In this document: positions 9,301-23,203 of the stretch, piece after piece
Position numbering within the stretch: position 1 is the stretch's first letter
Layout of the letters: each line of letters starts with the position of its first letter
Assembly (NCBI GenBank): GCA_958296135.2
Contig: CATQHZ020000001.1
Coordinates: 1,120,001-1,184,000 of the forward strand
Length of the DNA: 64,000 nt
Direction of reading: 5' to 3'
Source of the DNA: an uncultured Poribacteria bacterium
Lineage (GTDB): Bacteria > Poribacteria > WGA-4E > WGA-3G
Program-made: the position numbers and the translations under genes
The notes under the pieces: generated by a model
The model's input: only the letters and a program-made list of their open reading frames with translations
Told to the model about the DNA's origin: nothing
Database searches by the model: none

Positions 9301-9480
9301 CGCTCCCTAGAACTTATGATAATCTGGACAAATCTATCCTAATCTGACCTGTCCTCTTATCTGTCGTAGTTGCTGTTTCAACGCGTCGTGCCTCCGAGAC
9401 ACACGAGGTGTGCCTACTATGAGGGCTTATAGTCGCTCCGCAGCCGTTTTACCTCTCCGTCAAGCTCGCGGCGAGGGTTC
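9300..9480 (-). ncRNA. Putative TnpB omega/reRNA scaffold
   Basis: Position inferred from TnpB biology: it overlaps the tnpB 3' end and runs to the right end. Boundaries are approximate. Confidence 0.55.
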
Positions 9481-10549
9481 TTAAATTATGCGCGGCATTC
9501 AAGTCGCGGTCGATACCCACGCCACATGCCTCGCAGTGATATGTCCGCTCCGAGAGGGACAACTTCGTCTTCTTCTTCCCGCAAGCACTGCACGTCTTCG
9601 ATGACGGGAAGTTCACCGGTGCTTCGATAATCTCAACGCCGTGTGCCGCTGCTTTATACCGAAGCATCGTCAGGAAACCACTTAATGACGCATCGCTCAA
9701 CGCCTTTGCAAGACGGCGGTTTTTCAACAAGCCTGCCACGCGTAGACGCTCGATGCCGAGAACGTCAGCCGACTTTACAATCGCCGTGCTTGCCTTGTGA
9801 TGGGCATCCTCACGGAGACAGCAGATACGATAGTGAATCTTCTGAACGCGCACCTGCTTCCGATACCAATTCCTGCTTCGGTAAACCGAACGAGAGAGCT
9901 GACGCTGCGCACGCCGCAACTTCCGTAGATAGCGGTAGAGTGCCTTTGGGTTTTCAAACTCAACACCATCGGATGTCACGGCTAGGGTTTTGATACCTAC
10001 ATCAACACCAACTACCCGCATAGGACCCGCCTCAGAACGCACACGTGGCGCGCTGTCGGAAACCACCTTCACGAGAACCGATAGAAACCACCTGCCTGCA
10101 CGTTTTGAGACGACACACCGCCGAATCTCGCCACGCCACCGTAACTTCTCGCGCAGGCGAACCCAGCCAATCTTCGGTAGTTTGACACGTTTCTTATCAA
10201 TTCTCACACGTTCATTCGGTTGGTAGGAAGTCCTACTCGCTCGGGTGTGATAACGTGGGAATCGATTTTGACCGCGCCGCCACCGTTTGACTGCGTCATC
10301 AATGTGCATCACAGCGTTCTTTGCTGCACGTTGGTCGAGTTCCTTACACCACGGATATGTCTCGTGTTTCACGGCGTTGAATCGAACGTTCAACGTGTAA
10401 CCACTGCGCCACTCGTTTTCGGCGAGTCCCGCCTTGAAATCTGAGAGTGCATGGTTACGCGCCACGCGTGCATAACCACAATGTCGTGCAAGCAGCGTCG
10501 CCTGCTTATTATTCGGGTCCAACGCCATTAAATGCGTTTTCAATGTCAT
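9449..10549 (-). CDS. tnpB: RNA-guided endonuclease TnpB
   Basis: RuvC-I GVDVG, RuvC-II IERL, Zn finger CSAC..CEAC and RuvC-III DRDLNAA. N-terminal LDPNNKQ..ARHCGYAR HTH region. The catalytic D/E/D appear intact. Confidence 0.93.
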   Translation of the reverse strand: MTLKTHLMALDPNNKQATLLARHCGYARVARNHALSDFKAGLAENEWRSGYTLNVRFNAVKHETYPWCKELDQRAAKNAVMHIDDAVKRWRRGQNRFPRYHTRASRTSYQPNERVRIDKKRVKLPKIGWVRLREKLRWRGEIRRCVVSKRAGRWFLSVLVKVVSDSAPRVRSEAGPMRVVGVDVGIKTLAVTSDGVEFENPKALYRYLRKLRRAQRQLSRSVYRSRNWYRKQVRVQKIHYRICCLREDAHHKASTAIVKSADVLGIERLRVAGLLKNRRLAKALSDASLSGFLTMLRYKAAAHGVEIIEAPVNFPSSKTCSACGKKKTKLSLSERTYHCEACGVGIDRDLNAAHNLRTLAASLTER

Positions 10550-10730: not shown

Positions 10731-11819
10731 TCATAGAGTTCTCGCCACTGCACCGATGCCCTGTTGCGCTACAAAAATGCGGTAGATTTCCTCAAACAAG
10801 CGCACATCTGTCAGCGTATCTTCGGCGGAGGAGCGGAACGGTTCATCGCTGCGGACATTCGCCACAAAGTATTCCGCCTCCCGGCGGTATGCCCACGTCC
10901 ACGCGGGGCGCGGAATAGGACGCGTGAGCTCCTGCTCTTCACCGGCGCGGTAAATTTCCACTTCGGCAGGTGTATTCTTCAACAACAGCGGCGGTGCCCA
11001 GGTGTGAACCCACCCGTTTTCAAAGTAGATTTGGCTATGCTCGTCCCACCGATAATGTGAGACATGCCCGGTCTCCAGCGTTACCCGAATGCCGCCCATA
11101 TTAAAGAGGACAACGCCGGCATACCCGTTTGCATCCAGATCGACGGCGGTAATGCTGACATCGTCGCCTGCATCGAGCAACCAGCGCATGAGGTTGATGT
11201 TGTGCGTGTACTGCTGGAGGTATCCCAAATAGGGGCGGCGATATTGCTCAGGCAGCCACTCCGGGGTGATGATAGGCGCGCTCGGCTTCGGTTCTTCCGT
11301 GCTGTCCATCTGTGTATCCAGATTGCACACCCAATCGCCGCCAAATCCGTGATTTCGGGCATAAGTCAACCTGCCGAGTTCACCGGATTCTCGGAATTGG
11401 GTGACTTTCTCCTTGACAATCTCGTTGCCGGCATCGTACCGTTTCATGTAGCCTACCATCAGTTTTTTGCCGGCTGTGCGCGAGGCATCGACGATGGCTT
11501 CCGCTTGCGCGAGGGAGACAGCCATCGGTTTCTCCATGAAGACGTGCTTGCCGGCGAGCAGCAGGTCCTTCGCGATTTCGCCTTGGAGCGCGAAGTCTGC
11601 GGATACGGCGACGGCTTCAATGTCCGCGTCTTGAGCGAGTTCGTGATGGTGTGCGTAAAGCCGTGGGATGCCGAACCTTTTTTGAACTTTCGCGCCGAGT
11701 TCGGTGCGCACCTCGGCGAGCGCGAGGAGTTCGCAGTCTGGGGTGCCGGTAAAGTTTGGGATGTGAACCTTTTGCGCCATGAATCCACATCCAATGTAAC
11801 CGAGTCGGATTTTTTCCAT
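10731..11819 (-). CDS. Gfo/Idh/MocA family oxidoreductase
   Basis: IRLGYIGCGFMA Rossmann motif and HVFMEKPMA. Start moved to MEKIRL because the upstream extension is repeat DNA. Confidence 0.9.
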   Translation of the reverse strand: MEKIRLGYIGCGFMAQKVHIPNFTGTPDCELLALAEVRTELGAKVQKRFGIPRLYAHHHELAQDADIEAVAVSADFALQGEIAKDLLLAGKHVFMEKPMAVSLAQAEAIVDASRTAGKKLMVGYMKRYDAGNEIVKEKVTQFRESGELGRLTYARNHGFGGDWVCNLDTQMDSTEEPKPSAPIITPEWLPEQYRRPYLGYLQQYTHNINLMRWLLDAGDDVSITAVDLDANGYAGVVLFNMGGIRVTLETGHVSHYRWDEHSQIYFENGWVHTWAPPLLLKNTPAEVEIYRAGEEQELTRPIPRPAWTWAYRREAEYFVANVRSDEPFRSSAEDTLTDVRLFEEIYRIFVAQQGIGAVARTL

Positions 11820-11840
11820 TCCAATTTCCTCAAAATCGAG

Positions 11841-12072
11841 TTTCCATTCCCTTGCGACGGGAAAGCGCAGTTCAAATCGAGACCGGGAGGTCTCTCCTAC
11901 AGGCGGATCCCATCGCGGGGTTTCCATTGCCTTGCGACGGGAAAGCGCAGTTCAAATTGAGACCGGGAGGTCTCTCCTACAGGCGGATCCCATCGCGAGG
12001 TTTCCATTGCCTTGCAACGGGCAAGCGCAGCTCGAATCGAGACCGGGAGGTCTCTCCTACAGGCGGATCCCT
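11841..12072. repeat. 80-bp tandem repeat x~3, each containing a GTAG REP
   Basis: Units start at 11841, 11921 and 12001. Confidence 0.9.
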
Positions 12073-12087
12073 CGGGTCTTTAGTTTA

Positions 12088-12116
12088 ATTATAGCACAAC
12101 TCAACTGAAATGTCAA
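12088..12116 (-). promoter_or_regulatory. Consensus sigma70 promoter upstream of the oxidoreductase
   Basis: TTGACA-17nt-TATAAT with extended TG on the minus strand. Confidence 0.8.
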
Positions 12117-12261
12117 AGTTTTTGAACTTTGCATGAAAATTGCCCCAACGGCGGATACTCCGAGATTTTTAGGGAAAATTGGCAGATGTTGGCGTGTCTC
12201 CCCCAAAATGGCCGCTTTACTGGGCTATGCGCGAGTGAGGAACGGTTGGTATGCTGGTTCC

Positions 12262-12771
12262 TTAAAATTGTTTGTGCCGCGATTCAATTTGCTCCACCGC
12301 GCTTTTCGCGCCTTCGCGGACTAGCGCGGACAGGTCGCGTTGCGCGATGTGTCTCAGTTTGTCAAGTCCTGCGGCAGCTTGTCGGGCAATCTGTCCATCG
12401 GCCCCGTTTACTTCAATTTTGCCGAGGGCTACCGCGACGAAGTAACGGACGTCCGCGTCCTCATCGTCTAGTGCTTCGAGCAGTGCCTCAATATCCGTGG
12501 GGGTGGCCAGGTCGCGTTCTTCGTTGCCGATGTTAATCAAGGATTGCGCTGCGATGCGCCGCGAGTGGATGTCGCCGTAGCGCAGCGAGGCGAGTAGCCC
12601 GTCATTGGCCGCTGCGGGGATAACGGTGAGATTGTCCCAATCGCAATCAAGGCAGAACCATGAATCTTCGGCTAGATGCTGGACGTTTAGACTGCCGCAA
12701 TAGGGACATTCGTCAAACGCCGTTTCCCCGGTGAGCGGGATTTGTAACCCCGCGTCCATTTTCTGACTCAT
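12262..12771 (-). CDS. Zn-ribbon plus HEAT-repeat protein
   Basis: CPYCGS..CLDC, and HEAT-like ALLEALDDEDADVRYFVAVALGKI. The start ATG overlaps the upstream stop (ATGA). Confidence 0.75.
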   Translation of the reverse strand: MSQKMDAGLQIPLTGETAFDECPYCGSLNVQHLAEDSWFCLDCDWDNLTVIPAAANDGLLASLRYGDIHSRRIAAQSLINIGNEERDLATPTDIEALLEALDDEDADVRYFVAVALGKIEVNGADGQIARQAAAGLDKLRHIAQRDLSALVREGAKSAVEQIESRHKQF

Positions 12772-13142
12772 GAGGTTTCGTCTTCCTCCAGTTCCGGTAA
12801 ATCGCGCCATATTTCAGGGCCTTCCGGTTTGAAATTGATGGTGGCGATAAACTGCATGCCGTGATAGAAGTTAATCTTGAACTTCCCGCCGCCGAAATGT
12901 TGCTTGAGGTAGTCCAAGGGGGTTTCAATCAACGGCCCCATTTCATCTGCGTAGTAAAAAGCGAGTCGTTTGAATCGCACCGTGTTACCGATGGGTTCCT
13001 GCACGAGGAGTCGCGCGGATGTTGCTGGAAACAGCACTTTAAACGCGTTCCACAGGTCATCCATCGTTGGGTTCGGATTGCCAACCCGCTTTTTGAAGTC
13101 GTTTACTAGGTATTCCGAGAACGTGTTAAATACCCATTCCAT
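12768..13142 (-). CDS. Hypothetical protein (124 aa)
   Basis: AAGGAG RBS upstream. Translationally coupled to the HEAT gene. Confidence 0.75.
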   Translation of the reverse strand: MEWVFNTFSEYLVNDFKKRVGNPNPTMDDLWNAFKVLFPATSARLLVQEPIGNTVRFKRLAFYYADEMGPLIETPLDYLKQHFGGGKFKINFYHGMQFIATINFKPEGPEIWRDLPELEEDETS

Positions 13143-13155
13143 AAAAAATCTCCTT

Positions 13156-13705
13156 CGTGGCCGCCCGGCATCGCGGGGGACAGGCCCCCGCGCTACGGTA
13201 GGAGAGACGGCTCTACATCGGTGGTCAGGCTTCCGCGCTGCGGTAGTCGTGGCCGCCCGGCATCGCGGGGGCCAGGCCCCCGCGCTACGGTAGGAGAGAC
13301 GGCTCTACATCGGTGGTCAGGCTTCCGCGCTGCGGTAGTCGTGGCCGCTCGGCATCGCGGGGGCCAGGCCCCCGCGCTACGGTAGGAGAGACGGCTCTAC
13401 ATCGGTGGTCAGGCTTCCGCGCTGCGGGAGTCGTGGCCGCTCGGCATCGCGGGGGCCAGGCCCCCGCGCTACGGTAGGAGAGACGGCTCTACATCGGTGG
13501 TCAGGCTTCCGCGCTGTGGGAGTCGTGGCCGCTCGGCATCGCGGGGGCCAGGCCCCCGCGCTACGGTAGGAGAGACGGCTCTACATCGGTGGTCAGGCTT
13601 CTGCGCTGCGGGAGTCGTGGCTGCTCGGCATCGCGGGGGACAGGCCCCCGCGCTACGGTAGGAGAGGGAGCCTCACGTCGGAAGACAGGCTTCCGCGATG
13701 CGGGA
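13156..13705. repeat. 92-bp tandem repeat x~6 containing a REP-like palindrome
   Basis: Units start at 13156, 13248, 13340, 13432, 13524 and 13616. Each carries atcgcggggg(a/c)caggcccccgcgctac. Confidence 0.92.
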
Positions 13706-13796
13706 GGAGAGCGGTGCCGACCGGTTACAGTGGTGCCTTCAAGAAGTCCTTCCAGTCAAAATGAGGCAGAGGGAACTCCTCCGTGGCTTTGCATTG

Positions 13797-14294
13797 TCAG
13801 AACGTGGCGGCTTTCTCGAAGAATTCGATATCGACGCGTTCGATTTGCGCGGCGCGCGCGTTTTCGGCGACACGCTGGACAACCATCTCGCGCACGAACG
13901 GGATCGGGATGCGCTTCACGCGATGCACCACTTCCTCCGTGCAAGGCACCGTGGTGTTTCCGAGGAAGGGGCCATCCTGCGCGGCGGCTTCTGCGAGATG
14001 CTCGCACGTTTCCGGCACCAATTGTTGCAAACGCATTGAGACGTAATTGGTTACCCACTGCTTTAACGCTTCCGCTTGTGCGGCATCCGTGCCATTATCG
14101 GTAGGAGATGCGTGCAGGGCTTGAGGCCCTGGGGCAGTAGGAGCAACCTCCTGTTCCCGATTCTCCTGTGCGTCACCTGATAAGCGCGCGTTTCTATCTA
14201 ACTTCTGGTTGATACTGACGAGGAGGCTTTCCACGTTGGTCAGCCGTTCTTCCACATCTGTCAGCCGTTCTTGCAGGTGAATTTGTTCGCTCAT
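13797..14294 (-). CDS. Coiled-coil protein with C-terminal PCP_red-like domain
   Basis: C-terminal TEEVVHRVKRIPIPFVREMVVQRVAENAR..ERVDIEFF. AGGAGG RBS before MSEQ. Confidence 0.7.
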   Translation of the reverse strand: MSEQIHLQERLTDVEERLTNVESLLVSINQKLDRNARLSGDAQENREQEVAPTAPGPQALHASPTDNGTDAAQAEALKQWVTNYVSMRLQQLVPETCEHLAEAAAQDGPFLGNTTVPCTEEVVHRVKRIPIPFVREMVVQRVAENARAAQIERVDIEFFEKAATF

Positions 14295-14339
14295 ATTTCC
14301 TCCTATGGCCATTGCACTCCGCTGTAGTGCTTCATCCTG

Positions 14340-15059
14340 TTAAATCGCCCAGTATTTCCAGAGTTCTTCTGGAATCTCGTATTTAATCGCCTCTCGGCGT
14401 TTGTGGGAGTAGCGCGCGAACACGCCGAAACGTGGGATATCCCTCATATTCGCTGAGCCTGTGTGACACAGAAACGCGTGCCACAGCACAACATCTCCCG
14501 CGGCGGCGGTGAATTCCCGCGGGCTTTCCGGCGATAAATCCGAGAGCCTGTTCCAATCCCATCCTTCAACCTTCCTGAAGCTGCCATCGATTTGCTCAGG
14601 ATACTGAAGGAAGTATTGATGCGTTGTGTGGTGACTTCCGGGCCAATAGACGAAGGCTCCGCCGCTGGGTTGCACATCGTAGAGGTACGTCGTCGCGCCG
14701 AGCATGAAAGGGCTCCAGCCGCTGGCGCCGTAGGCATCAATGTGTCCAATCGCTGGCATTGCCCATTTTTCGTTTGGGTTGGGCCATTTCACGAGAGGTG
14801 AGCCGCCGCCGCCCGTGAACGCGCCCCCGCCGAGTTGTTCGGTTATCGCCTGCATCGCAGGCAGCTGCCCGAAGAGCGGTGAGAAACTGAAGTTCTGCAC
14901 CACGTAGCCGTTGGGCCATGTCTCTGGCGTATCTAAACTGGAATTGAGATGCTCCCAGACCTGGGCGCGCCATCCGTCAATTACATCCGAATTGATGAGA
15001 TTTTCAAGGATAATGTATCCATTTTCCTGAAAAAATGTGACTTGTGCTGGTGTTAGCAT
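14340..15059 (-). CDS. Phytanoyl-CoA dioxygenase (PhyH) family Fe(II)/2OG dioxygenase
   Basis: LT..QV.FFQENGY, HID, PGSH and AGDVVLWH...HTGSAN...R motifs. Confidence 0.88.
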   Translation of the reverse strand: MLTPAQVTFFQENGYIILENLINSDVIDGWRAQVWEHLNSSLDTPETWPNGYVVQNFSFSPLFGQLPAMQAITEQLGGGAFTGGGGSPLVKWPNPNEKWAMPAIGHIDAYGASGWSPFMLGATTYLYDVQPSGGAFVYWPGSHHTTHQYFLQYPEQIDGSFRKVEGWDWNRLSDLSPESPREFTAAAGDVVLWHAFLCHTGSANMRDIPRFGVFARYSHKRREAIKYEIPEELWKYWAI

Positions 15060-15120
15060 GCGATTTTCCTTGTCAGCATAAGTGCCGTCGAACGACGCGT
15101 TGCGAGATACAAAAAACGCG

Positions 15121-16428
15121 TTAACGCCGCGGCGTGAAAGATGGAATTCCTGTCTTGTCAAACCGCTTTTTGACCGCTTTCATTAACTCCGGTGTGATTT
15201 CCCGATGTCCGTGTTCGTGCGCGTATTTTTCAACGCTCTTGATAACCATCCCCCGTGCGAAAGAGGGGACGCGCTTTAACCGCTTCTGTGCTGCATCATT
15301 CCACTGCAAATCGTAGGCTGGTTCTGTCGCGAACGCGGTTGTTTTTGCGAATTGAACGGCCTGACGTTGTTGCCCCGGTTGATATTCGCACGATGCGTCA
15401 GCGGCGAGGTAATTGCCGGTGTCGGCGTAGGCGCGCGCGCGGCATCCGCCGCAGACTTCTCGGAATTCACATGCGCCGCACTTCCCTTCGAGCCGGTCGC
15501 GGTTTCGCAAATTCTGGAAGGGTTCGGATTCATTCCAGAGTTTGACGAAACTTTCGTCCTTCAGGTTACCGACGCTCACGGGCAGATAAGGGCACGGAGT
15601 CAACTCTCCTTCCGGTGAGATGCGGCAGTAGTAAATACCACACGGACAGGTGCCGCTTGGGTAGCCCTGCAAGAAGGCGGAATCGGATTGCTGTTCGTAG
15701 ATGACGCGCTTATAGTGCGGTGCGCACTTCGCCGCGATGAGCATCTTCCCACTGTAGTCGGCTTGCAGCTGGAACATCGTCTCCAGCATCTTCTCATATT
15801 GCGCCGCGGTCAGATCCATCACCGTCTTCCCTCTTCCTGTCCGCACGAGAAAGTAGAGGTTCAGCACCTTCGCGCCGAGTTGGTAGGCGAATGCCACAAT
15901 CTGTGGGATTTCATCGTAATTCCACTGCGTTACCGAGGTCTGGACGAGGAAGTCAAGTTTAGCGCGTTTGAGTGCCTCAACGCCGTTCATCGTCGCTTTC
16001 CATGCGCCTTCCATGCCACGAAACCTGTCGTGGTTGGCGGGTTGGATAGAATCGATGCTGAGCCCTGCGCCGGTTACGCCGTGCCGTTGCATCTGCTCAA
16101 CGACTTCGTGGTTCAGTAGCACGCCGTTTGTGCCCATCACGACGAGGAATCCCGTGTCGGCGGCGTATTTGGAAATCTGCAAAATATCGGGACGTAACAA
16201 CGGTTCGCCGCCGGTGAGGATGAGCAGAATGTTTGGATTTATCTCGGCAATCTCGTCAATGATACGGAAGCATTCCGATTGGCTGAGTTCTGCGTCGCGG
16301 TAATAGCCGTGCGGGAATTCGTCTGTATCAACGAATCCTGCTGGCAGGTAGCAGTGCGTGCATTTCAGATTGCATAACCGCGTGATATTCCACGAGACTG
16401 CCTGAACTTTTGTTTTTTGGTTTTCCAT
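15121..16428 (-). CDS. Radical SAM/SPASM protein (NirJ/Ahb-like) with C-terminal PCP_red domain
   Basis: CNLKCTHC, LTGGEP, SPASM cysteines (CPCG..C..PC; CGACEFREVCGGCRARA) and C-terminal WNDAAQKRLKRVPSFARGM..E.YA..HG..EIT. Confidence 0.88.
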   Translation of the reverse strand: MENQKTKVQAVSWNITRLCNLKCTHCYLPAGFVDTDEFPHGYYRDAELSQSECFRIIDEIAEINPNILLILTGGEPLLRPDILQISKYAADTGFLVVMGTNGVLLNHEVVEQMQRHGVTGAGLSIDSIQPANHDRFRGMEGAWKATMNGVEALKRAKLDFLVQTSVTQWNYDEIPQIVAFAYQLGAKVLNLYFLVRTGRGKTVMDLTAAQYEKMLETMFQLQADYSGKMLIAAKCAPHYKRVIYEQQSDSAFLQGYPSGTCPCGIYYCRISPEGELTPCPYLPVSVGNLKDESFVKLWNESEPFQNLRNRDRLEGKCGACEFREVCGGCRARAYADTGNYLAADASCEYQPGQQRQAVQFAKTTAFATEPAYDLQWNDAAQKRLKRVPSFARGMVIKSVEKYAHEHGHREITPELMKAVKKRFDKTGIPSFTPRR

Positions 16429-16505
16429 TTCGTTTTTTAGTCGTCCGTGCGTGTCTGACAGATTGTAAGGACAGATTTCTATATCTGTCCGCTGCAAGCA
16501 AGGGG

Positions 16506-16958
16506 TTAGATTTTTAGTCGCATCGCGATGCCGAAAACAGCTAAGCCTGCGATGAGCGTCAAAACGCCGAAGAGATTGACAGTTGGGCTCGGGTTGCGCT
16601 GTGCGTTTTCTTGTTCAAGGTGCCGCCGATACAGCGAGCTGTGTAGCCCCCAAAACAGTGCCATGAATCCGAACGCTGCGAGTTTCACAACAAAGTTTAC
16701 CATATATCCGACATTGAATGCCATATCATTATTCCATGCGACGATAAAAAACACCATCGCGCCTGTTGTGAGGAGAATGTGAATCATGAGACGGATCCAA
16801 CGTCGGAGGCGGTTATGGATTTCCAGCGGCGCGTTGCTTGGCAAATGTCGCTGCACAATCGGCATGGCGATGAAGGTAGAGAAGACGACTCCGCCGAACC
16901 AGACTATCGCTGCGATGAGGTGTATGCATCGGATGCAAAGTTCTACGATTGTTCGCAT
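16506..16958 (-). CDS. Four-TM membrane protein (CopD/DUF4149-like)
   Basis: IHLIAAIVWFGG motif and four hydrophobic segments. Confidence 0.7.
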   Translation of the reverse strand: MRTIVELCIRCIHLIAAIVWFGGVVFSTFIAMPIVQRHLPSNAPLEIHNRLRRWIRLMIHILLTTGAMVFFIVAWNNDMAFNVGYMVNFVVKLAAFGFMALFWGLHSSLYRRHLEQENAQRNPSPTVNLFGVLTLIAGLAVFGIAMRLKI

Positions 16959-17011
16959 TTTTGTGTTGAAGTTTCGTTAACCTGGAGCTCATCCTATTTG
17001 GCGTGAGAGTG

Positions 17012-17896
17012 TCAACCGTGCGTTCCGCGCCCATTTGGATTTCCTGTAACGAGTGGGCAGATCCCTTCAAATTCAAGGCGCGTTGCGGGGCGAATGGAAA
17101 AATATTGGTGCCGCTGTCCCTTGAAGCGGGCTTTTAACGCCGGTCCTTTCTGGAAGGTTTGGTAGCGGGGGTGTGGATAGCCGCCGTTTAAGTTGAGGGG
17201 TATATCCTCTGATTCCCGCAGCTCTAAATCCAATTGAAGGATTTCTTCGACGGTGTAGGACAGTTTCAGGTAAAGCACGGCTACCAAGCGGGCAAACTTT
17301 TGAAACTGCACAGGCGTTTCGCGAAACGCTTGATAGAGTTGCGGTAGCGGCGATTCGTGGATTTCTAGGCCATTTTCGTGTTCTAATGAGGGGCCGTTAC
17401 GCACCCGATATTCAAATAGCCACGGACTCGCAACACCGAGTTTTTCATCGAGAAGGATTCGCTTTGCTCGCAGTTCGGCTATCTGATCTCCTGTAAAATC
17501 ACCGAACCTCTTCTCATGATGCAGGCCCTGCTCCTGACTCTTTTCCAGAACCACCTCCCAACCAGACGAAGTTTCAGTAACCGTTTGCGGCGCAACCCAC
17601 GCGGCGTAGTCGCGGTGCGCAAAAGCGAAGTCTCCACCGCCTCCCGTTTTTAGCGAATGCAAAAATTCGGTTTCTTCGGGTGATTCTGGCAGCAGTTTGA
17701 GAGAAATTTCGGATGAATTCACGCGCGCCTCTTGCACCCGAACAAAATACTGGATCCGGTTTGTCGGGCGTAGAAGCACAAATTCGCAGGGCTCGCTCTC
17801 CGGGGGGACTGCCTCAGTGAAATCACTGCTACTCGGCTGAGGGATGACCTTTCGGTACCTTTCCATGAGAGTGAGTTCATAAACGTGTTGTGGCAT
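17012..17896 (-). CDS. Hypothetical protein (294 aa)
   Basis: Long ORF with its own promoter-like sequence. No family recognised. Confidence 0.65.
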   Translation of the reverse strand: MPQHVYELTLMERYRKVIPQPSSSDFTEAVPPESEPCEFVLLRPTNRIQYFVRVQEARVNSSEISLKLLPESPEETEFLHSLKTGGGGDFAFAHRDYAAWVAPQTVTETSSGWEVVLEKSQEQGLHHEKRFGDFTGDQIAELRAKRILLDEKLGVASPWLFEYRVRNGPSLEHENGLEIHESPLPQLYQAFRETPVQFQKFARLVAVLYLKLSYTVEEILQLDLELRESEDIPLNLNGGYPHPRYQTFQKGPALKARFKGQRHQYFSIRPATRLEFEGICPLVTGNPNGRGTHG

Positions 17897-17967
17897 TTTT
17901 AGCGTTCAAGCAGATGTGCATTAATTAACGGCATCCGCGCCGCTTGACCTGGTTCTCCACGTTTTTA

Positions 17968-17996
17968 ATGCTAACAGATTCCGCGGAAAATGTCAA
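17968..17996 (-). promoter_or_regulatory. Sigma70-type promoter
   Basis: TTGACA-17nt-TAGCAT with extended TG. Confidence 0.6.
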
Positions 17997-18039
17997 ATTA
18001 ATTTCACGCGAAAAGAGACAAGTTTTCCATTTTGTCTTC

Positions 18040-19719
18040 CTACGGTGCCAGCATCGTCTTGATGTCTGCAGGCAGCTTAGCGTCGATAATCCGCTCAAAG
18101 TCTGCAACGCTCTTGTAGAGGGAGTGGAACAGGGCTGAAACATCCAACCCTATTCTTCCTGCAGCAGCCAAATCCGCTTTGGCTTTATCCCCATTTTGTA
18201 GGCACAGCCAAACGAGAGCCCGATTGAAATAAACCAGCGCATCATGCGGATTTACCCCTATTGCCGTGGTGTAGTCTTCAATGGCTAGATCGAACTCGCC
18301 TGTGCAGAAGTAAGCAGCGCCGCGATTGCAATAGGCTTTGGCATTATTGGGACTCCACTCTATCGCTTTGGTATAGTCTGCTATTGCCGGCTCAAACTGA
18401 CGTTTTTTGCCGTAAGCAACACCCCGGTCGTAATAGGCATCCGCGAAATCGGGGTTGAGTTTTATCGCTTCGCTCAAGTCTTCGATGGCTTTGCCAGCGT
18501 CGCCTGCTTTACCATAAAGGTTGCCGCGATTGTAGTAGGCATTGGCATAATTGGGATTGAGTTCTATTGCCGTGTTAAAGTCTGCAATCGCCCTTTCCAA
18601 TTCGCCGGTTTTGTGATAAACACTCCCGCGGCTGTTATAGGCCTCGGCAAAACACGGGTCAAGTTTTATCGCCGTGTTCAAGTCTTTGAGAGCCTTATCA
18701 ACGTTGCCTTCGTTGCTGTAGACGTTGCCGCGATTATTATAGGCATCGGCGTAATCTGGTTTAAGCGTAATCGCGGTGTTAAAGTCATTGATAGCGTTGT
18801 TAACTTCGCCTTTGACGTTATAAACGATGCCCCGATTGTTATAAGCCCCGGCATAACTAGGGTTGAGTTCGATCGCTGTGTTGAAATCGTCAAGGGCCTT
18901 TTCAACCTCACCGACGTTGCCGCGATTATTATAGGCATCGGCGTAATCTGGTTTAAGCGTAATCGCGGTGTTAAAGTCATTGATAGCGTTGTTAACTTCG
19001 CCTTTGACGTTATAAACGATGCCCCGATTGTTATAAGCCCCGGCATAACTAGGGTTGAGTTCGATCGCTGTGTTGAAATCGTCAAGGGCCTTTTCAACCT
19101 CACCTATGTTGCAGTAAACGATGCCCCGATTGTTATAAGCCCCGGCATGCTCTGGCTTCAGATTAATTGCATGCGAATAAGCTTCTATCGCTCTCTCCGT
19201 TTCCCCGAGCATCATCAGAAAGTTTCCCTGCTGGAACACCCACTCAGGTAGCGTTTCTTTTTTTGCAGCGTTAGATACCCGAGCCCGCGTTTCGGCAACA
19301 GCTTCTCGGATTCCATCTACCACGTTTTGCCAACCCCTACTCTCAGGATGCCATTCGTTAATCGGCACGCCTTTGTCAGGAAGTACCTCAAAATCCTGGA
19401 GTTGATGATTGAGCCAATCACAACTCTCAAGGATGATGGGGATGACTCTCATGTCTAACCTGAGTGCTTCGGCTAATTCCTTGTTGCAGTTTTTAGAGGC
19501 AAGACTCTCAGCAGAAACGAGATAGAGAAGCAAGTCCGAATCGGCAAGGTGTTTGAGAATGTCTTCTTGGCTCGCTTTGTCTCCCGCGGTGAGGTCTCCA
19601 TCGTGCCAAGTGGTGAGTTCGTTTTGCTGTTCCATCACAGCAAGACGCGTTCCCAATTTGTTCTTTGCTTCGGTGTCTGCATGCGAATAGGCAATGAATC
19701 CCTTGAGTGGTTTGCTCAT
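18040..19719 (-). CDS. TIR domain plus TPR repeat protein
   Basis: N-terminal FIAYSHAD..WHD..LVSAESLASKNCNKE TIR signature, followed by about 10 TPRs (AYNNRG..F..AI.L.P). Confidence 0.9.
   Translation of the reverse strand: MSKPLKGFIAYSHADTEAKNKLGTRLAVMEQQNELTTWHDGDLTAGDKASQEDILKHLADSDLLLYLVSAESLASKNCNKELAEALRLDMRVIPIILESCDWLNHQLQDFEVLPDKGVPINEWHPESRGWQNVVDGIREAVAETRARVSNAAKKETLPEWVFQQGNFLMMLGETERAIEAYSHAINLKPEHAGAYNNRGIVYCNIGEVEKALDDFNTAIELNPSYAGAYNNRGIVYNVKGEVNNAINDFNTAITLKPDYADAYNNRGNVGEVEKALDDFNTAIELNPSYAGAYNNRGIVYNVKGEVNNAINDFNTAITLKPDYADAYNNRGNVYSNEGNVDKALKDLNTAIKLDPCFAEAYNSRGSVYHKTGELERAIADFNTAIELNPNYANAYYNRGNLYGKAGDAGKAIEDLSEAIKLNPDFADAYYDRGVAYGKKRQFEPAIADYTKAIEWSPNNAKAYCNRGAAYFCTGEFDLAIEDYTTAIGVNPHDALVYFNRALVWLCLQNGDKAKADLAAAGRIGLDVSALFHSLYKSVADFERIIDAKLPADIKTMLAP
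18721..19104. repeat. 192-bp tandem duplication within the TPR region
   Basis: 18721-18912 matches 18913-19104, giving a 64-aa repeat in the protein. Confidence 0.9.
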
Positions 19720-19955
19720 GGCTTTCTCTCTTTCACGGTGCAAATTTTCTTCATGATGATAACATATCTCACGAAACAAATTGCAACTGAATTTCGCTAA
19801 TGTTCCAAACAGGCTGTCACTCGCAATCAGGACGCTCGGCGGGGGCTAAATACGTCGCCCTTCCATGGATAAAGAAGCCTTTAGTTCCGCATGGGAAAAG
19901 TCCCTCTGCCATGCGGCAGCCATATCCTTCGGTGGTGCCCCTCGGTAGTTATGAA

Positions 19956-20222
19956 TTAACCCTGTCGTATGCGCCTCTCGTATTCGTCGTGTTTTCCAAT
20001 CCAAAACCAGACGAGAGTTCCCTTTCGTTCAACAGCCAACATCCGATAGGCATCGCTGATTCGTGCAGCCCACAGCGTCTTCTTAACCTTTTTCAAGTGC
20101 AGTGACGGATGTTTTGGATTGTCAAACAACAATTTGATTTTCCTGAGTGCGCGTTCTTGAACGTTTTGTGGGAGTCTGTTATAATATCTCCAAAAACCTG
20201 CGTCCAGGCTATGTTTATTCAT
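19956..20222 (-). CDS. RelE/ParE-like toxin
   Basis: FW..Y..LP..VQ.RA..K..L...NP.HPSLHLKKV..WAARI..YR..WFWIG.HDEY pattern. ATGA overlap with the upstream gene. Confidence 0.8.
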   Translation of the reverse strand: MNKHSLDAGFWRYYNRLPQNVQERALRKIKLLFDNPKHPSLHLKKVKKTLWAARISDAYRMLAVERKGTLVWFWIGKHDEYERRIRQG

Positions 20223-20665
20223 AACTCTTCGTACGTGTAAGCGCGAAAATCAGAAAGATTTTGAGGCCTTCCGACTTTTGCGTCTCTGCATCCGAGCAAG
20301 GCAGTCTTCAAAGATTGAAGCACAGCCCCGGGGGCATCTGACGAGTGCTGCGCGAGAAACACGCCCAGGTCTTTGCATTTACCCGCGTCAAAATCGGCAA
20401 TGACGCGCTCGGCGATAGCATCGAATTTCCCGGCATCCACGTCTGCCTCGATTTGCCGATCCCAAGCGTCTGCGTGAGCTGCTAATGCCTCGCGAAGTCT
20501 GACTTCTAGCGTTCGCATCAACGCCTCTTTCGTTTTCGCGTGACACTTCACCTCAGGGAATTCCTGAATCGACCCATTCCATCCCTCGCTATTCTCCCAG
20601 ATGTTGGCGGTATAGATTTCGCCATCATCAGGGTCTTGGATTTCGTGAGTATAAACGCTTGTCAT
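20219..20665 (-). CDS. Putative antitoxin (HicB-like N-terminus plus WDRQIEAD..AGK module)
   Basis: Acidic ORF immediately upstream of the toxin, with a WDRQIEADVDAGKFD motif. Confidence 0.65.
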   Translation of the reverse strand: MTSVYTHEIQDPDDGEIYTANIWENSEGWNGSIQEFPEVKCHAKTKEALMRTLEVRLREALAAHADAWDRQIEADVDAGKFDAIAERVIADFDAGKCKDLGVFLAQHSSDAPGAVLQSLKTALLGCRDAKVGRPQNLSDFRAYTYEEL

Positions 20666-20720
20666 GCGTGGCTCCTTTCATTGATATGGGGCAGCGCGCT
20701 TGGAAAAGCGCGCCTACTTG

Positions 20721-21254
20721 CTAGAACTGCGAGGGGAAATTCCCACGGGCCGCATCCATTACCTCCGCGGTAATCTCTGCGTGGCCGTTGTCTTTCGCGA
20801 AACCTTCAATGCCCATCTTTGCCATAGGCCGGACAAAACTCGGGATCCGCTCCAAGCGTGCTAATGCCTCCGCTGACCAGGTGGGACCGGCAGGTTCTAC
20901 CTTCGGCTCTTCTTCCTCAAACGCGCCCGCGATAACGGAGGTAAAGGGACACTTGCCGCCCTCAGCAGTTCCCGCCGCGTTTGCGTCTTGTGCGTCGGGT
21001 GTGTCGGGCATCGGCTCGCGTTTGGCTGTGCCTAATTGTGAACGCACCATCTGCATCGGTTGCGCTGCCTCGGCAGTGCCGCCTAGCTGCAAGTCCAAGG
21101 ATTTTAGCATCTGGGTTTCCCAGGGGTTGAGGAACATCGCGAATTCCACGAAGCAGTCGGGGCATTCAAACACGGCGGTGACAGAGCCTTGCTCCGGGCG
21201 CGTCACGTCTTTGAATTTCATCGCTGTATCGCAGTCTCGGCATAAGAATTTCAT
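20721..21254 (-). CDS. Zn-finger plus PCP_red domain protein
   Basis: CRDC..CPDC, a KCPF motif, and C-terminal WSAEALARLERIPSFVRPMAKMGIEGFAKDNG..EIT. Confidence 0.8.
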   Translation of the reverse strand: MKFLCRDCDTAMKFKDVTRPEQGSVTAVFECPDCFVEFAMFLNPWETQMLKSLDLQLGGTAEAAQPMQMVRSQLGTAKREPMPDTPDAQDANAAGTAEGGKCPFTSVIAGAFEEEEPKVEPAGPTWSAEALARLERIPSFVRPMAKMGIEGFAKDNGHAEITAEVMDAARGNFPSQF

Positions 21255-21256
21255 TG

Positions 21257-22129
21257 TTAAGTCTCCTTAAAGAAATGTTGAATTTTTCCGGCAACTGCTG
21301 TGAGTGCTAGGCTTGCGGGAGTGTCCGGGTATTCTCGCACATAAGGCATGCCTTTGTCGCTACAGTAGGCGAGTTTCGCATCGAAGGGTATGCTACCGAG
21401 TGTCTCCTCCCATAAAGGTTCATCGGTAGAGAAGAGGGGTTCCTTTTCGCCACAATGCTGGCAGATATGAAACGCCATATTTTCGATAACGCCGATGATA
21501 GGCACGTTGAGGATATGTTGCGCCATCGCTAATGATTTTTTGACGATGAATTGCGACACCTCGGAGGGTATCGTCACGACGAGAACGCCGCCAAGGTTCG
21601 GCAGAAGTTCGACGACGTTGGGGAGTTTGTCTGTGCCCGGCGGCAGATCGAGCAGGAGGTAGTCAAGTGCGCCCCATTCGGTATCGCCGATGAATTCTCG
21701 GAGTGCGCCGACTTCCATCGTGGCGCGCCAGGTGAAGGCATCTTTCTGGGTATGCGCATTCCACAGCACGGGTGCCTCATCCTCGGCAAGCAGTAAATCC
21801 ATGGAGATAACCTTGATGCCGAGGGCGTTGACAATGGGGGTGACTCCTGCCGGCGAATAGTGGAGTGCGGCGTTCCGCACGCCCATCATTTTGGCTATCG
21901 ATGGCCCGTTGATATCCGCGTCGACTACGCCAACAGCGCAGCCTTCCAGCGCGAGCGCGGCGGCGAGGTTCGCGGTTATCGCGCTCTTGCCGACACCGCC
22001 TTTCCCGCTCATAATTGCGACGGTGTGTTTCACATCGGCAAGCCGTTTTTGGAGTCGGTTTAGCTGCGCTGTGACTTGCCCGATGATGTCGGATCCGGCA
22101 TCAGCCGGTAGTTCGTTGTAGGTTTTCAT
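21257..22129 (-). CDS. Mrp/ApbC/NBP35 family Fe-S cluster carrier ATPase
   Basis: SGKGGVGKS, DADINGPS, DLPPGT and ENM..CQHC motifs. Confidence 0.9.
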   Translation of the reverse strand: MKTYNELPADAGSDIIGQVTAQLNRLQKRLADVKHTVAIMSGKGGVGKSAITANLAAALALEGCAVGVVDADINGPSIAKMMGVRNAALHYSPAGVTPIVNALGIKVISMDLLLAEDEAPVLWNAHTQKDAFTWRATMEVGALREFIGDTEWGALDYLLLDLPPGTDKLPNVVELLPNLGGVLVVTIPSEVSQFIVKKSLAMAQHILNVPIIGVIENMAFHICQHCGEKEPLFSTDEPLWEETLGSIPFDAKLAYCSDKGMPYVREYPDTPASLALTAVAGKIQHFFKET

Positions 22130-22245
22130 AATGGACAGGACGGACGTGAACGTCTAAAACTCCGGTTCGGTAGGCGCGCTTTATTCGGAATTATCCGTTT
22201 ATTTTTTTACTTCATCAAAACGCGCCCCAAGGTTGCTGGAAAAGG

Positions 22246-22854
22246 CTAATCCGCCAGCAGTTTAAAAGTATGCCGATGGATTTCCGACGCGCCGAACTCC
22301 GCAATCGCTGTCCGATGCTGTGGTGTCGGATACCCTTTGTGCTGCGGAAATCCGTAGTTTGGATAGGTTTCGCCGAATTCAATCATCAGCGCATCACGTG
22401 TCGTTTTGGCGATAACGGAGGCCGCTGCGATGGAGAGACTCAAACTATCCCCCTTTGGAATTGCTTGTCCCATAACCCTTGTTTCGGGCAGATCCAACCC
22501 ATCTACCAGTAGGTAATCTGGAGATGGAGAGAGATTAGCAACAGCGTCCTGCATGGCTAAGAGCGTTGCGCCTAAGATATTGAGACGCGCTATCATCGGC
22601 GGATCGGCGCGGCCGACACCTACTGAGATGGCCACCCGGTGGATTTCATCCCGCAGGCGCGAACGTTGATGCGGTGATAACTGCTTTGAATCCCTCAAAC
22701 CGGGAATCTGGCAATTAGGTGGTAGAATGACAGCGGCGGCGATGACGGGGCCGGCCAAGGCGCCTCGGCCCACTTCGTCAACGCCAGCAATTTGTCGGTA
22801 GCCGTTCTGTCGGCAGGCGCGCTCGAAAGCGTTCAGGCAAACGTGTTTCTCCAT
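22246..22854 (-). CDS. rnhB: Ribonuclease HII
   Basis: GVDEVGRGALAGPV, DSK, KGD.S.SIAAAS.IAK and KGYPT motifs. Confidence 0.95.
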   Translation of the reverse strand: MEKHVCLNAFERACRQNGYRQIAGVDEVGRGALAGPVIAAAVILPPNCQIPGLRDSKQLSPHQRSRLRDEIHRVAISVGVGRADPPMIARLNILGATLLAMQDAVANLSPSPDYLLVDGLDLPETRVMGQAIPKGDSLSLSIAAASVIAKTTRDALMIEFGETYPNYGFPQHKGYPTPQHRTAIAEFGASEIHRHTFKLLAD

Positions 22855-22858
22855 CAGC

Positions 22859-23203
22859 CTATCTTCTTCTCTCTTTGACACGCGCGGCCCTTCCGGTGCG
22901 TTCCCGTAGGTAATACAACTTTGCCCGCCGGACGGCACCGTACCGGACGACTTGGATACTGTCAATATTCGGCGAATGGAGCGGGAACGTTCTTTCACTC
23001 CCGGTTCCGAACGCGACGCGCCGCACCGTAAATGTCGCCCGCGCGCCGCTGTGCGCGCGCCGAATGACGGTGCCTTCGTACACCTGAATTCGCTCTTTCT
23101 GCCCCTCCCGGATACGGGTGTTCACCTTGACAATGTCGCCGGGGCCAAATTGAGGGAGATCACTCTTCAGATATTGGCTTTCAACGGACTCAATTAAGTT
23201 CAT
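22859..23203 (-). CDS. rplS: 50S ribosomal protein L19
   Basis: ERIQVYEG, VRRAKLYYLR. Confidence 0.97.
   Translation of the reverse strand: MNLIESVESQYLKSDLPQFGPGDIVKVNTRIREGQKERIQVYEGTVIRRAHSGARATFTVRRVAFGTGSERTFPLHSPNIDSIQVVRYGAVRRAKLYYLRERTGRAARVKERRR

Follow-up and report, generated by a model that had tools for sequence, protein, structure and literature searches.

PCP_red (Pfam PF08369) is a domain of about 45 residues that forms the C-terminal tail of BchB and ChlB in DPOR, the protochlorophyllide oxidoreductase that operates in the dark. In the accessible parts of the published work, the C-terminal helix of BchB is described as covering the substrate cavity (PMC4071322), and the L-protein as touching BchB through salt bridges whose residues are left unnamed (PMC12022308, section 12). 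The same domain is seen on its own in the nuclear magnetic resonance structures 2L09 (Asr4154) and 2KRU, and for these stand-alone versions a literature search returned methods papers only and no functional paper. AhbD and NirJ2 are radical S-adenosylmethionine (SAM) enzymes of the haem b synthase type, with a CxxxCxxC core and a Cys-rich SPASM domain; according to the accessible part of a 2026 review, AhbD is found in organisms that use the coproporphyrin pathway and have none of the other Ahb enzymes. The cytochrome bd-like oxidases of the OR-N type, in turn, have their first four helices in common and a total of up to 14, as far as the available portion of their description goes (10.1101/2021.01.16.426971). 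Here we describe a row of genes at positions 12262-22129 of a 64-kb stretch of DNA (the window) from a member of Candidatus Poribacteria, a sponge symbiont placed by the names of its nearest proteins and loci. In this row a radical SAM/SPASM enzyme of the AhbD/NirJ2 type ends in PCP_red and is accompanied by further PCP_red proteins and an Mrp-type ATPase.

All genes of the row lie on the minus strand and are transcribed in the order Mrp, Zn-ribbon-PCP_red protein, ParE-like toxin pair, TIR-TPR protein, 294-residue protein, CopD-like membrane protein, radical SAM/SPASM-PCP_red enzyme, PhyH dioxygenase, coiled-coil protein, 124-residue protein and Zn-ribbon-HEAT protein. Four sequencing runs from a single study contain this DNA, and no RNA data set is listed for 12262-22129. 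The locus represents a conserved accessory module, related to haem and belonging to respiratory islands, in a copy that has been rearranged and broken up by insertions. Overall, we find it slightly better than evenly supported that this is the Poribacteria copy of a conserved accessory module of respiratory-oxidase islands with an AhbD-like core. The islands concerned carry cytochrome bd-like oxidases, probably of the OR-N type, and, in Poribacteria, also cox, CtaA and CtaB genes. The module itself probably serves haem or tetrapyrrole maturation linked to respiration. A first-pass annotation made from the letters alone had named several of these genes, all of which are present on the minus strand at the positions it gave. 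It had placed them in a cofactor or tetrapyrrole maturation pathway, and the tetrapyrrole setting is borne out by the AhbD/NirJ2-type scores, the haem-protein neighbours and the linkage to bd-like oxidases. The cluster as it was drawn held in its conserved row, including the CopD-like and HEAT genes; its 294-residue hypothetical protein turned out to be an insertion, and it lacked two further members of the row (the PhyH dioxygenase at 14340-15161 and the conserved 124-residue protein at 12768-13142), a distant gene with three PCP_red copies and the oxidase link. Literature searches (PCP_red/PF08369; bd-like plus radical SAM) found no publication on the module.

PCP_red proteins and the radical SAM enzyme

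Three proteins of the row had been proposed to end in PCP_red, and two of them exceed the gathering cut-off of 32.5 bits: the Zn-finger protein encoded at 20721-21254 (62.6 bits, residues 126-170) and the radical SAM/SPASM protein encoded at 15121-16497 (55.8 bits, residues 399-443). The third, the coiled-coil protein encoded at 13797-14312, stays under the cut-off with 22.0 bits (E 1.7e-4); one of its orthologues reaches 30.0 bits. When the coiled-coil and Zn-finger families were compared by hhalign, exactly the PCP_red region was aligned (46 columns, probability 52%, E 1.4e-4), and the coiled-coil C-terminus is probably a divergent relative of PCP_red, not a certified member. Genome-wide, PF08369 matches six domains in four open frames of 180-636 amino acids, none of them BchB-sized; above the cut-off are again the Zn-finger and radical SAM proteins, together with three copies in a Usp protein. 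The fourth protein is encoded outside the window, at 3.42 Mb of the chromosome (G000:C1); it has 635 residues and contains, in order, two Usp domains, a first PCP_red copy, a Zn ribbon of rubredoxin-like type and the other two PCP_red copies (Usp-PCP_red x3). Only one of 14 control genomes, that of the cyanobacterium, has any PF08369 match, so that the set found here exceeds chance.

The best solved match of the Zn-finger protein is residues 460-506 of ChlB (2XDQ_B, E 5.4e-6), and it also matches the stand-alone domain 2L09 (E 0.003). The resemblance to DPOR ends with the tail. DPOR, photosynthesis genes and a nitrogenase-like BchB core are all absent from this genome, and the two BchB equivalog models give only 39.4 bits against a cut-off of 509 and 38.1 against 490, with no more than the last ~60 model positions aligned. 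The carriers also differ from BchB, being a radical SAM enzyme, a Zn ribbon and Usp domains here, and a NIR_SIR-Fer4 protein in anammox bacteria. In the latter (Brocadiales), a protein with an N-terminal PCP_red, a sirohaem-binding NIR_SIR domain and a Fer4 dicluster is encoded directly upstream of ahbA/ahbB, in two genomes according to Pfam (L093 3056-3931 in G007; L094 2689-3711 in G009) and in a third of the four according to coordinates. This architecture was not met in any paper found. PCP_red is thereby attached to proteins of three tetrapyrrole branches, namely BchB, the NIR_SIR protein beside ahbAB and the AhbD-like enzyme, a distribution that fits an adaptor for tetrapyrrole enzymes which binds a common partner or pigment. 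For its carriers in this genome (radical SAM enzyme, Zn-ribbon, coiled-coil and distant Usp proteins), PCP_red could be a common adaptor that assembles these proteins, or the tetrapyrrole itself. We regard such a role in assembly or hand-off as evenly poised.

The radical SAM/SPASM enzyme (15121-16497, PCP_red encoded at 15169-15303) probably starts at M24, at position 16428, its orthologues having 433-434 residues. Its Pfam scores are 81.1 bits for Radical_SAM, 38.7 for SPASM and 55.8 for PCP_red. Among the NCBIfam models it scores highest with AhbD (320 bits), NirJ2 (306) and TIGR04053 (274), compared with 126 each for PqqE and the mycofactocin family, and the AhbD model is aligned over its full length (2-339 of 339). 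The radical SAM motif CNLKCTHC (CxxxCxxC) is found at residues 42-49, and with it a Cys-bearing SPASM region, as in AhbD. The further Cys residues are at positions 258, 284, 286, 291, 302, 340, 343, 349, 352 and 370, nine of them in the SPASM region; with the exception of C286, these Cys residues do not vary among ten sequences taken from several phyla. The enzyme differs from AhbD and NirJ2 in carrying additional C-terminal PCP_red domains, from one here to three in the Brocadiales versions, and from AhbD in that its gene travels in the company of oxidase genes, other PCP_red genes and an Mrp paralogue, not of ahbABC. It is a distinct paralogous subfamily, sister to AhbD/NirJ2. The plain label AhbD was considered and rejected as a statement of membership, because the enzyme scores below the cut-offs and coexists with a canonical AhbD in some genomes. 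With probably three [4Fe-4S] clusters, it would act on an iron tetrapyrrole in an oxygen-free reaction.

Relatives of this enzyme were collected in a scan with one genome per species, which gave 80 loci, 28 from Poribacteria and 52 from other lineages; gene counts at these loci are from tblastn with the window proteins. PCP_red-fused versions occur in Poribacteria, Brocadiales, Nitrospinota, Nitrospiraceae, Methylomirabilota, Gemmatimonadota, Thermodesulfobacteriota, Acidobacteriota, Chloroflexota, Myxococcota and Latescibacterota. Besides Poribacteria, roughly ten further lineages of phylum rank conserve the module. This breadth bears on whether the enzyme might instead have a small protein or a peptide as its substrate, such as the coiled-coil or the 124-residue protein, with PCP_red as the substrate-recognition element. 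Many SPASM enzymes are peptide maturases, such families do appear lower in the match list, and small conserved proteins flank the gene in Poribacteria. Their scores are far lower than that of AhbD, however, and the two candidate substrates do not follow the enzyme: the coiled-coil gene is present at 28/28 Poribacteria loci and 0/52 others, and the 124-residue gene at 23/28 and, beside the radical SAM gene, at only 2/52 (L081 and L084). In other phyla the neighbours of the enzyme are haem proteins, including cytochromes c, dihaem c-EB_dh proteins, multihaem cytochromes and a CydA-like protein of 600-700 amino acids. We therefore give a peptide substrate very little credence.

The Mrp paralogue and its Zn-ribbon partner

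The gene at the upstream end of the row (21257-22129) encodes a divergent P-loop Fe-S carrier ATPase of 290 amino acids. Its PF10609 score (230.3 bits, cut-off 27.1), a deviant Walker A motif (GKGGVGKS at residue 42) and a CxxC motif (CQHC at 223-226, with C223 and C226 invariant in 19/19 orthologues) place it in the Mrp/NBP35 family. The GKGGVGKS P-loop and the conserved CxxC for a bridging cluster are common to it and to the Mrp/ApbC/NBP35 carriers, including MrpORP of Desulfovibrio. It falls below the equivalog cut-offs for ApbC (NF008669, 169.1 bits against 348) and MrpORP (NF041136, 225.7 against 450), and aligns with only the first 249 of the 365 positions of the MrpORP model. The genome encodes a second, canonical Mrp at C1:1017816, which scores 349.9 bits compared with 224.5 for the window protein. 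Unlike ApbC and MrpORP, the window protein is thus an extra, divergent copy, always paired with a Zn-ribbon-PCP_red gene.

That gene (20721-21254, PCP_red encoded at 20745-20879) starts 2 nt past the Mrp stop codon and encodes 177 amino acids. In an alignment of 19 orthologues, C5, C8, C31 and C34 (CxxC...CxxC) are invariant, and both the Zn ribbon and PCP_red are retained in 12/12 further orthologues from other phyla. A K-C-P-F motif around C102 is present in 19/19 close orthologues and presumably resembles the haem regulatory Cys-Pro motif; CPF is found in only 6/12 of the more distant orthologues, so we dropped the motif as a family feature and keep it as a lead only. As the first-pass annotation had expected, the association holds across phyla: the Zn-ribbon-PCP_red gene directly follows Mrp at 21/21 loci that have it, and in 20 of the 27 genomes examined that carry the module (module genomes), a divergent Mrp paralogue and a PCP_red gene are within ~1 kb of each other. 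The pair is present at 16/28 Poribacteria loci. At loci without Mrp, such as L017 (G005), the pair is found elsewhere, adjoining Usp-PCP_red x3. Outside Poribacteria, Mrp followed by a full-length Zn-ribbon-PCP_red gene occurs at L058, L075, L078, L084 and L086. Usp-PCP_red x3 is found at ten non-Poribacteria loci, and the full set of Usp-PCP_red x3, Mrp, Zn-ribbon-PCP_red and enzyme is found at L058, L075, L078, L084 and L086. The adjacency in 21/21 loci and 20/27 genomes, together with the second, canonical Mrp in this genome, supports the idea that the Mrp paralogue and the Zn-ribbon-PCP_red protein are dedicated partners. Together, these two translationally coupled proteins would most likely load or repair the Fe-S clusters of the enzyme, or take over its product.

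The first-pass annotation had gone further and proposed PCP_red as a docking tag that recruits the Mrp ATPase for Fe-S delivery; in such a model the ATPase dimer would be drawn, in the manner of NifH or BchL, to each tagged protein to hand over [4Fe-4S] clusters. The close pairing just described would fit such a role, as would the direct neighbourhood of Mrp and the radical SAM-PCP_red gene in G016 and G017, the need of the enzyme for about three clusters, the membership of Mrp and BchL in one P-loop class and the weak NifH/BchL family matches of the Mrp paralogue. However, PCP_red proteins, the radical SAM enzyme among them, are encoded in the four Brocadiales genomes (4/4), whose enzyme carries three PCP_red domains, and in G019, where the sole Mrp has a canonical score and is not adjacent to them. 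PCP_red thus has no obligate partner in the Mrp paralogue, and Mrp docking cannot be the general function of the domain. Moreover, the Usp, coiled-coil and NIR_SIR proteins with PCP_red show no evident need for such delivery, though NIR_SIR-Fer4 does bind clusters, and the accessible texts do not confirm a contact between the PCP_red of BchB and BchL. An apparent Mrp-PCP_red fusion in L078 (a 455-residue frame) was rejected, since tblastn puts Mrp and the Zn-ribbon protein in two different reading frames. Prediction of a complex of two Mrp chains with the Zn-ribbon-PCP_red protein (19-row alignments) gave 0.48, 0.49 and 0.41, next to 0.42 for one unrelated control, a result that weighs on neither side. 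We consider docking of Mrp by PCP_red for cluster delivery unlikely.

Haem genes and linkage to respiratory oxidases

The remaining haem genes of this genome, which is 94.7% complete, point to where the enzyme might act. One cluster contains hemE, the ferrochelatase gene hemH (TIGR00109, 176 bits, cut-off 124.6) and a HemY-type oxidase gene (TIGR00562, 285.6 bits, cut-off 97.85); it occupies L088 3165-8344 (G000:C1, 4597-4602 kb), where a metallo-beta-lactamase-fold gene stands between hemE and hemH. Searches of the genome, within its completeness, found neither AhbA/B nor HemF. Its HemN-family proteins are HemW (267 bits, cut-off 205) and one other member (hemN 140 against 325), and its sole Chlor_dismutase-family protein is a weak match (Pfam 66.6 bits over half the model), with scores for the HemQ models of 44.6 against 235 and 42.2 against 253. 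Judged from these genes, the layout is that of a coproporphyrin-dependent pathway in which the step from coprohaem to haem b has no convincing enzyme besides the radical SAM protein; this gene set matches the presence of AhbD in such organisms without the other Ahb enzymes, as given in the accessible part of the 2026 review. Among the 27 module genomes, 22 have no other AhbD-like gene with a higher score (E <= 1e-30). The likeliest reaction would be the decarboxylation of both coprohaem propionates to give haem b, which is favoured because the genome makes coprohaem through hemE, hemH and hemY and has no convincing other last-step enzyme. The assignment of coprohaem decarboxylase chemistry is a tentative one, and we rate it a little short of an even chance.

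One link to respiration is the distant Usp-PCP_red x3 gene, which in this genome adjoins SCO1, cox subunit genes, CtaB and CtaA. About 15 kb from it lies a gene for a bd-like oxidase of 689 amino acids, which has genes for c-type cytochromes and for an EB_dh haem b protein on its flanks. Of the CydA model, the oxidase aligns with no more than the first half (3-237 of 418; 63.5 bits), and this, with its length of ~690 residues, fits the OR-N description as far as that source is available. A homologue of it was found in 27/27 module genomes, and in 13 of them, including four of the six other complete Poribacteria chromosomes, it is encoded on the same contig, at most ~25 kb from the enzyme. The oxidase operon of a Brocadiaceae genome has a Usp-Usp-PCP_red gene inside it. 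As a control we sampled 121 genomes of Acidobacteriota, the phylum of G020. PCP_red occurs in six and the oxidase in five of the 121; all five are among the six, on the same contigs, and the oxidase was found in none (0/115) of the PCP_red-negative genomes. The oxidase is nevertheless to be seen as context and not as part of the module, and is here 2.3 Mb away. In the nearest relative, G001, the counterpart of this oxidase (G001:C1:4309776-4311773, 96% identical) contains three in-frame stop codons (one TGA, two TAG), so that either the gene is broken or the assembly is wrong here.

Taken together, these data would be explained if the module finishes haem, or hands it over, for respiratory oxidases, and it probably does so at the membrane, where the CopD/HemJ-like protein might act as an electron sink or as the point of haem hand-over. 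Several observations weigh against this reading. The enzyme stays well below the equivalog cut-offs for AhbD (TIGR04545, 320.4 bits, or 321.2 in the genome scan, against 500), NirJ2 (TIGR04055, 306.5 against 500) and TIGR04053 (274.2 against 395). Five of the 27 module genomes, the four Brocadiales and G019, have a canonical AhbD (489-543 bits) alongside the PCP_red-fused enzyme (287-343 bits), with AhbA/B in the four Brocadiales only (4/27); there the fused enzyme is not the housekeeping haem b synthase and may do other chemistry. Another coprohaem decarboxylase is also possible, given that a Chlor_dismutase-family protein is present in 19/27 module genomes, including all Poribacteria examined; the strong matches in Nitrospinota and Nitrospiraceae may be chlorite dismutases. 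The 2.3-Mb separation of module and oxidase island is shared by this genome and G001, and the module is likewise far from the oxidase in Nitrospinota. Finally, the co-occurrence counts are not phylogenetically independent: the Fisher test for Acidobacteriota gives p = 3e-8, or 6e-7 without G075, the one unpublished genome among the six positives, and these values overstate independence as the genomes are kin.

The same observations leave room for a different product. The enzyme could convert haem to a special cofactor that serves the bd-like (OR-N) oxidase, or act on some other iron tetrapyrrole, with the PCP_red proteins as chaperones of the product. The coexistence with canonical AhbD in 5/27 genomes, scores under every AhbD/NirJ cut-off, the strict co-occurrence with the bd-like oxidase and the Usp-PCP_red gene within the Brocadiaceae oxidase operon all agree with this idea, and the main text of the OR-N preprint (10.1101/2021.01.16.426971), in the portion accessible, mentions neither radical SAM enzymes nor haem biosynthesis. 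On the other hand, the fused enzyme is the only AhbD-like one in 22/27 genomes, which fits a plain haem b synthase role there, and in Poribacteria the module also lies by haem-copper oxidase and haem A genes and so is not specific to one oxidase. We hold a special cofactor to be improbable. It is speculative, and in our estimate quite unlikely, that PCP_red is a general domain for tetrapyrrole hand-off and assembly and that the module builds a dedicated, possibly modified haem and delivers it to OR-N oxidases, with the Mrp paralogue and the Usp scaffold in one membrane-associated maturation complex.

Should the favoured reading, an accessory module that supplies haem to respiratory oxidases, be correct, it would become testable how Gram-negative lineages of the coproporphyrin type complete haem without oxygen. 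The same would apply to the cofactor supply of the OR-N oxidases, which are uncharacterised but widespread (in Poribacteria, anammox bacteria, nitrite oxidisers and other groups), and to the role of PCP_red, whose one known setting is the tail of a chlorophyll enzyme. The module provides a short list of genes for co-expression, and the canonical AhbD and the PCP_red-fused paralogue of the same anammox genome offer a direct contrast for assays.

Other genes, insertions and rearrangement of the row

Directly upstream of the radical SAM gene lies the gene for the CopD-like membrane protein (16506-16958, 150 amino acids), which is present at 28/28 Poribacteria loci and also at L058 and L084. HemJ (UPF0093) and CopD are small multi-helix membrane proteins with a conserved His in the first helix, and the protein encoded here has the same features, its His13 in the first helix being nearly invariant. 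Its own scores are below the gathering values for CopD (PF05425, 31.8 against 32.1) and UPF0093/HemJ (PF03653, 19.8 against 34.2). Among 20 orthologues, 19 match CopD and ten match UPF0093 at E <= 0.01, the best E value being 8e-8. On these matches it is a relative of CopD and HemJ at clan level only.

Downstream of the enzyme, the gene at 14340-15161 encodes a PhyH-family Fe(II)/2-oxoglutarate dioxygenase (PF05721, 40.2 bits; probable start M35 at 15059); it is an accessory of Poribacteria only, found at 19/28 of their loci and at 0/52 others. It is followed by the coiled-coil gene, whose product probably starts at M7 (14294); the PCP_red-like C-terminus is encoded at 13809-13937, and C103, H105, C124 and H130 are invariant in the orthologue alignment. 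The 124-residue protein (12768-13142), with a FGGGKFK.NF motif, is conserved by tblastn. It has no Pfam or NCBIfam match, and the Atlas search gave no usable one. Its AlphaFold2 model has a predicted local distance difference test score of 92; Foldseek found no match to it in the Protein Data Bank at E <= 0.001 (best 0.017), and a wide search none at Z >= 5 (best 4.9). The last gene (12262-12810), at 23/28 Poribacteria loci, encodes a protein with a Zn ribbon and HEAT repeats (HEAT_2 PF13646, 30.4 bits; CPYC at 35, CLDC at 53). Its probable start, M14 at 12771, lies directly past the stop codon of the 124-residue gene, and it has a weak NCBIfam match to the bilin lyase CpcF (17.7 against 220).

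Four genes between the Zn-ribbon-PCP_red and CopD-like genes, at 17012-20665, are confined to the closest relatives and are for this reason taken as insertions, not module genes. They encode a 294-residue hypothetical protein of no family (17012-17896, at 2/28 Poribacteria loci), a TIR-TPR protein (18040-19779, Pfam TIR_2 and TPR, with a close match of 74% in L008 only), a ParE-like toxin (19956-20222, Pfam ParE_like) and the upstream partner of the toxin (20219-20665), whose gene overlaps that of the toxin; the last two are found in L008 only. The stretch 18040-20665 looks like a mobile or defence-type insertion within the module, with L008, the closest relative, as its one other carrier. Inside the TIR-TPR gene there is a duplication of 192 bp x 2 (18721-19112).

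The coiled-coil gene is separated from the 124-residue gene by an intergenic tandem repeat (13155-13706; 92 bp x 6.0 copies, 95% matches), which is not part of the module. Six exact or near-exact copies of its core were counted against none (0) expected, and the 92-bp unit bears a GC-rich inverted repeat, GCGGGGGCC..GGCCCCCGC. No Rfam family reached its gathering score in 11500-23000. A second intergenic tandem array lies at 11840-12071 (80 bp x 2.9 copies, 94% matches).

The present position of the module can be traced through a PQQ-like beta-propeller gene. In many Poribacteria this gene stands between Usp-PCP_red x3 and Mrp (L007 8015-9292; L026 6564-7847); in this genome it is still with the Usp gene at the oxidase island, and RNase HII and ribosomal genes are now next to the Mrp end, upstream of window position 22129. 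The beta-propeller gene having stayed with the Usp gene, the breakpoint falls between it and Mrp, just upstream of 22129. As both this genome and G001 show the 2.3-Mb separation, the module moved in their common ancestor. An IS605-family OrfB/TnpB gene is found at 9449-10549, just downstream of the conserved row (OrfB_IS605 75.8 bits, Cas12f1-like TNB 68.7 bits), and another TnpB gene lies near the Chlor_dismutase-like gene (L089 11835-13169). These TnpB genes may have to do with the relocation that separated the module from the oxidase island.

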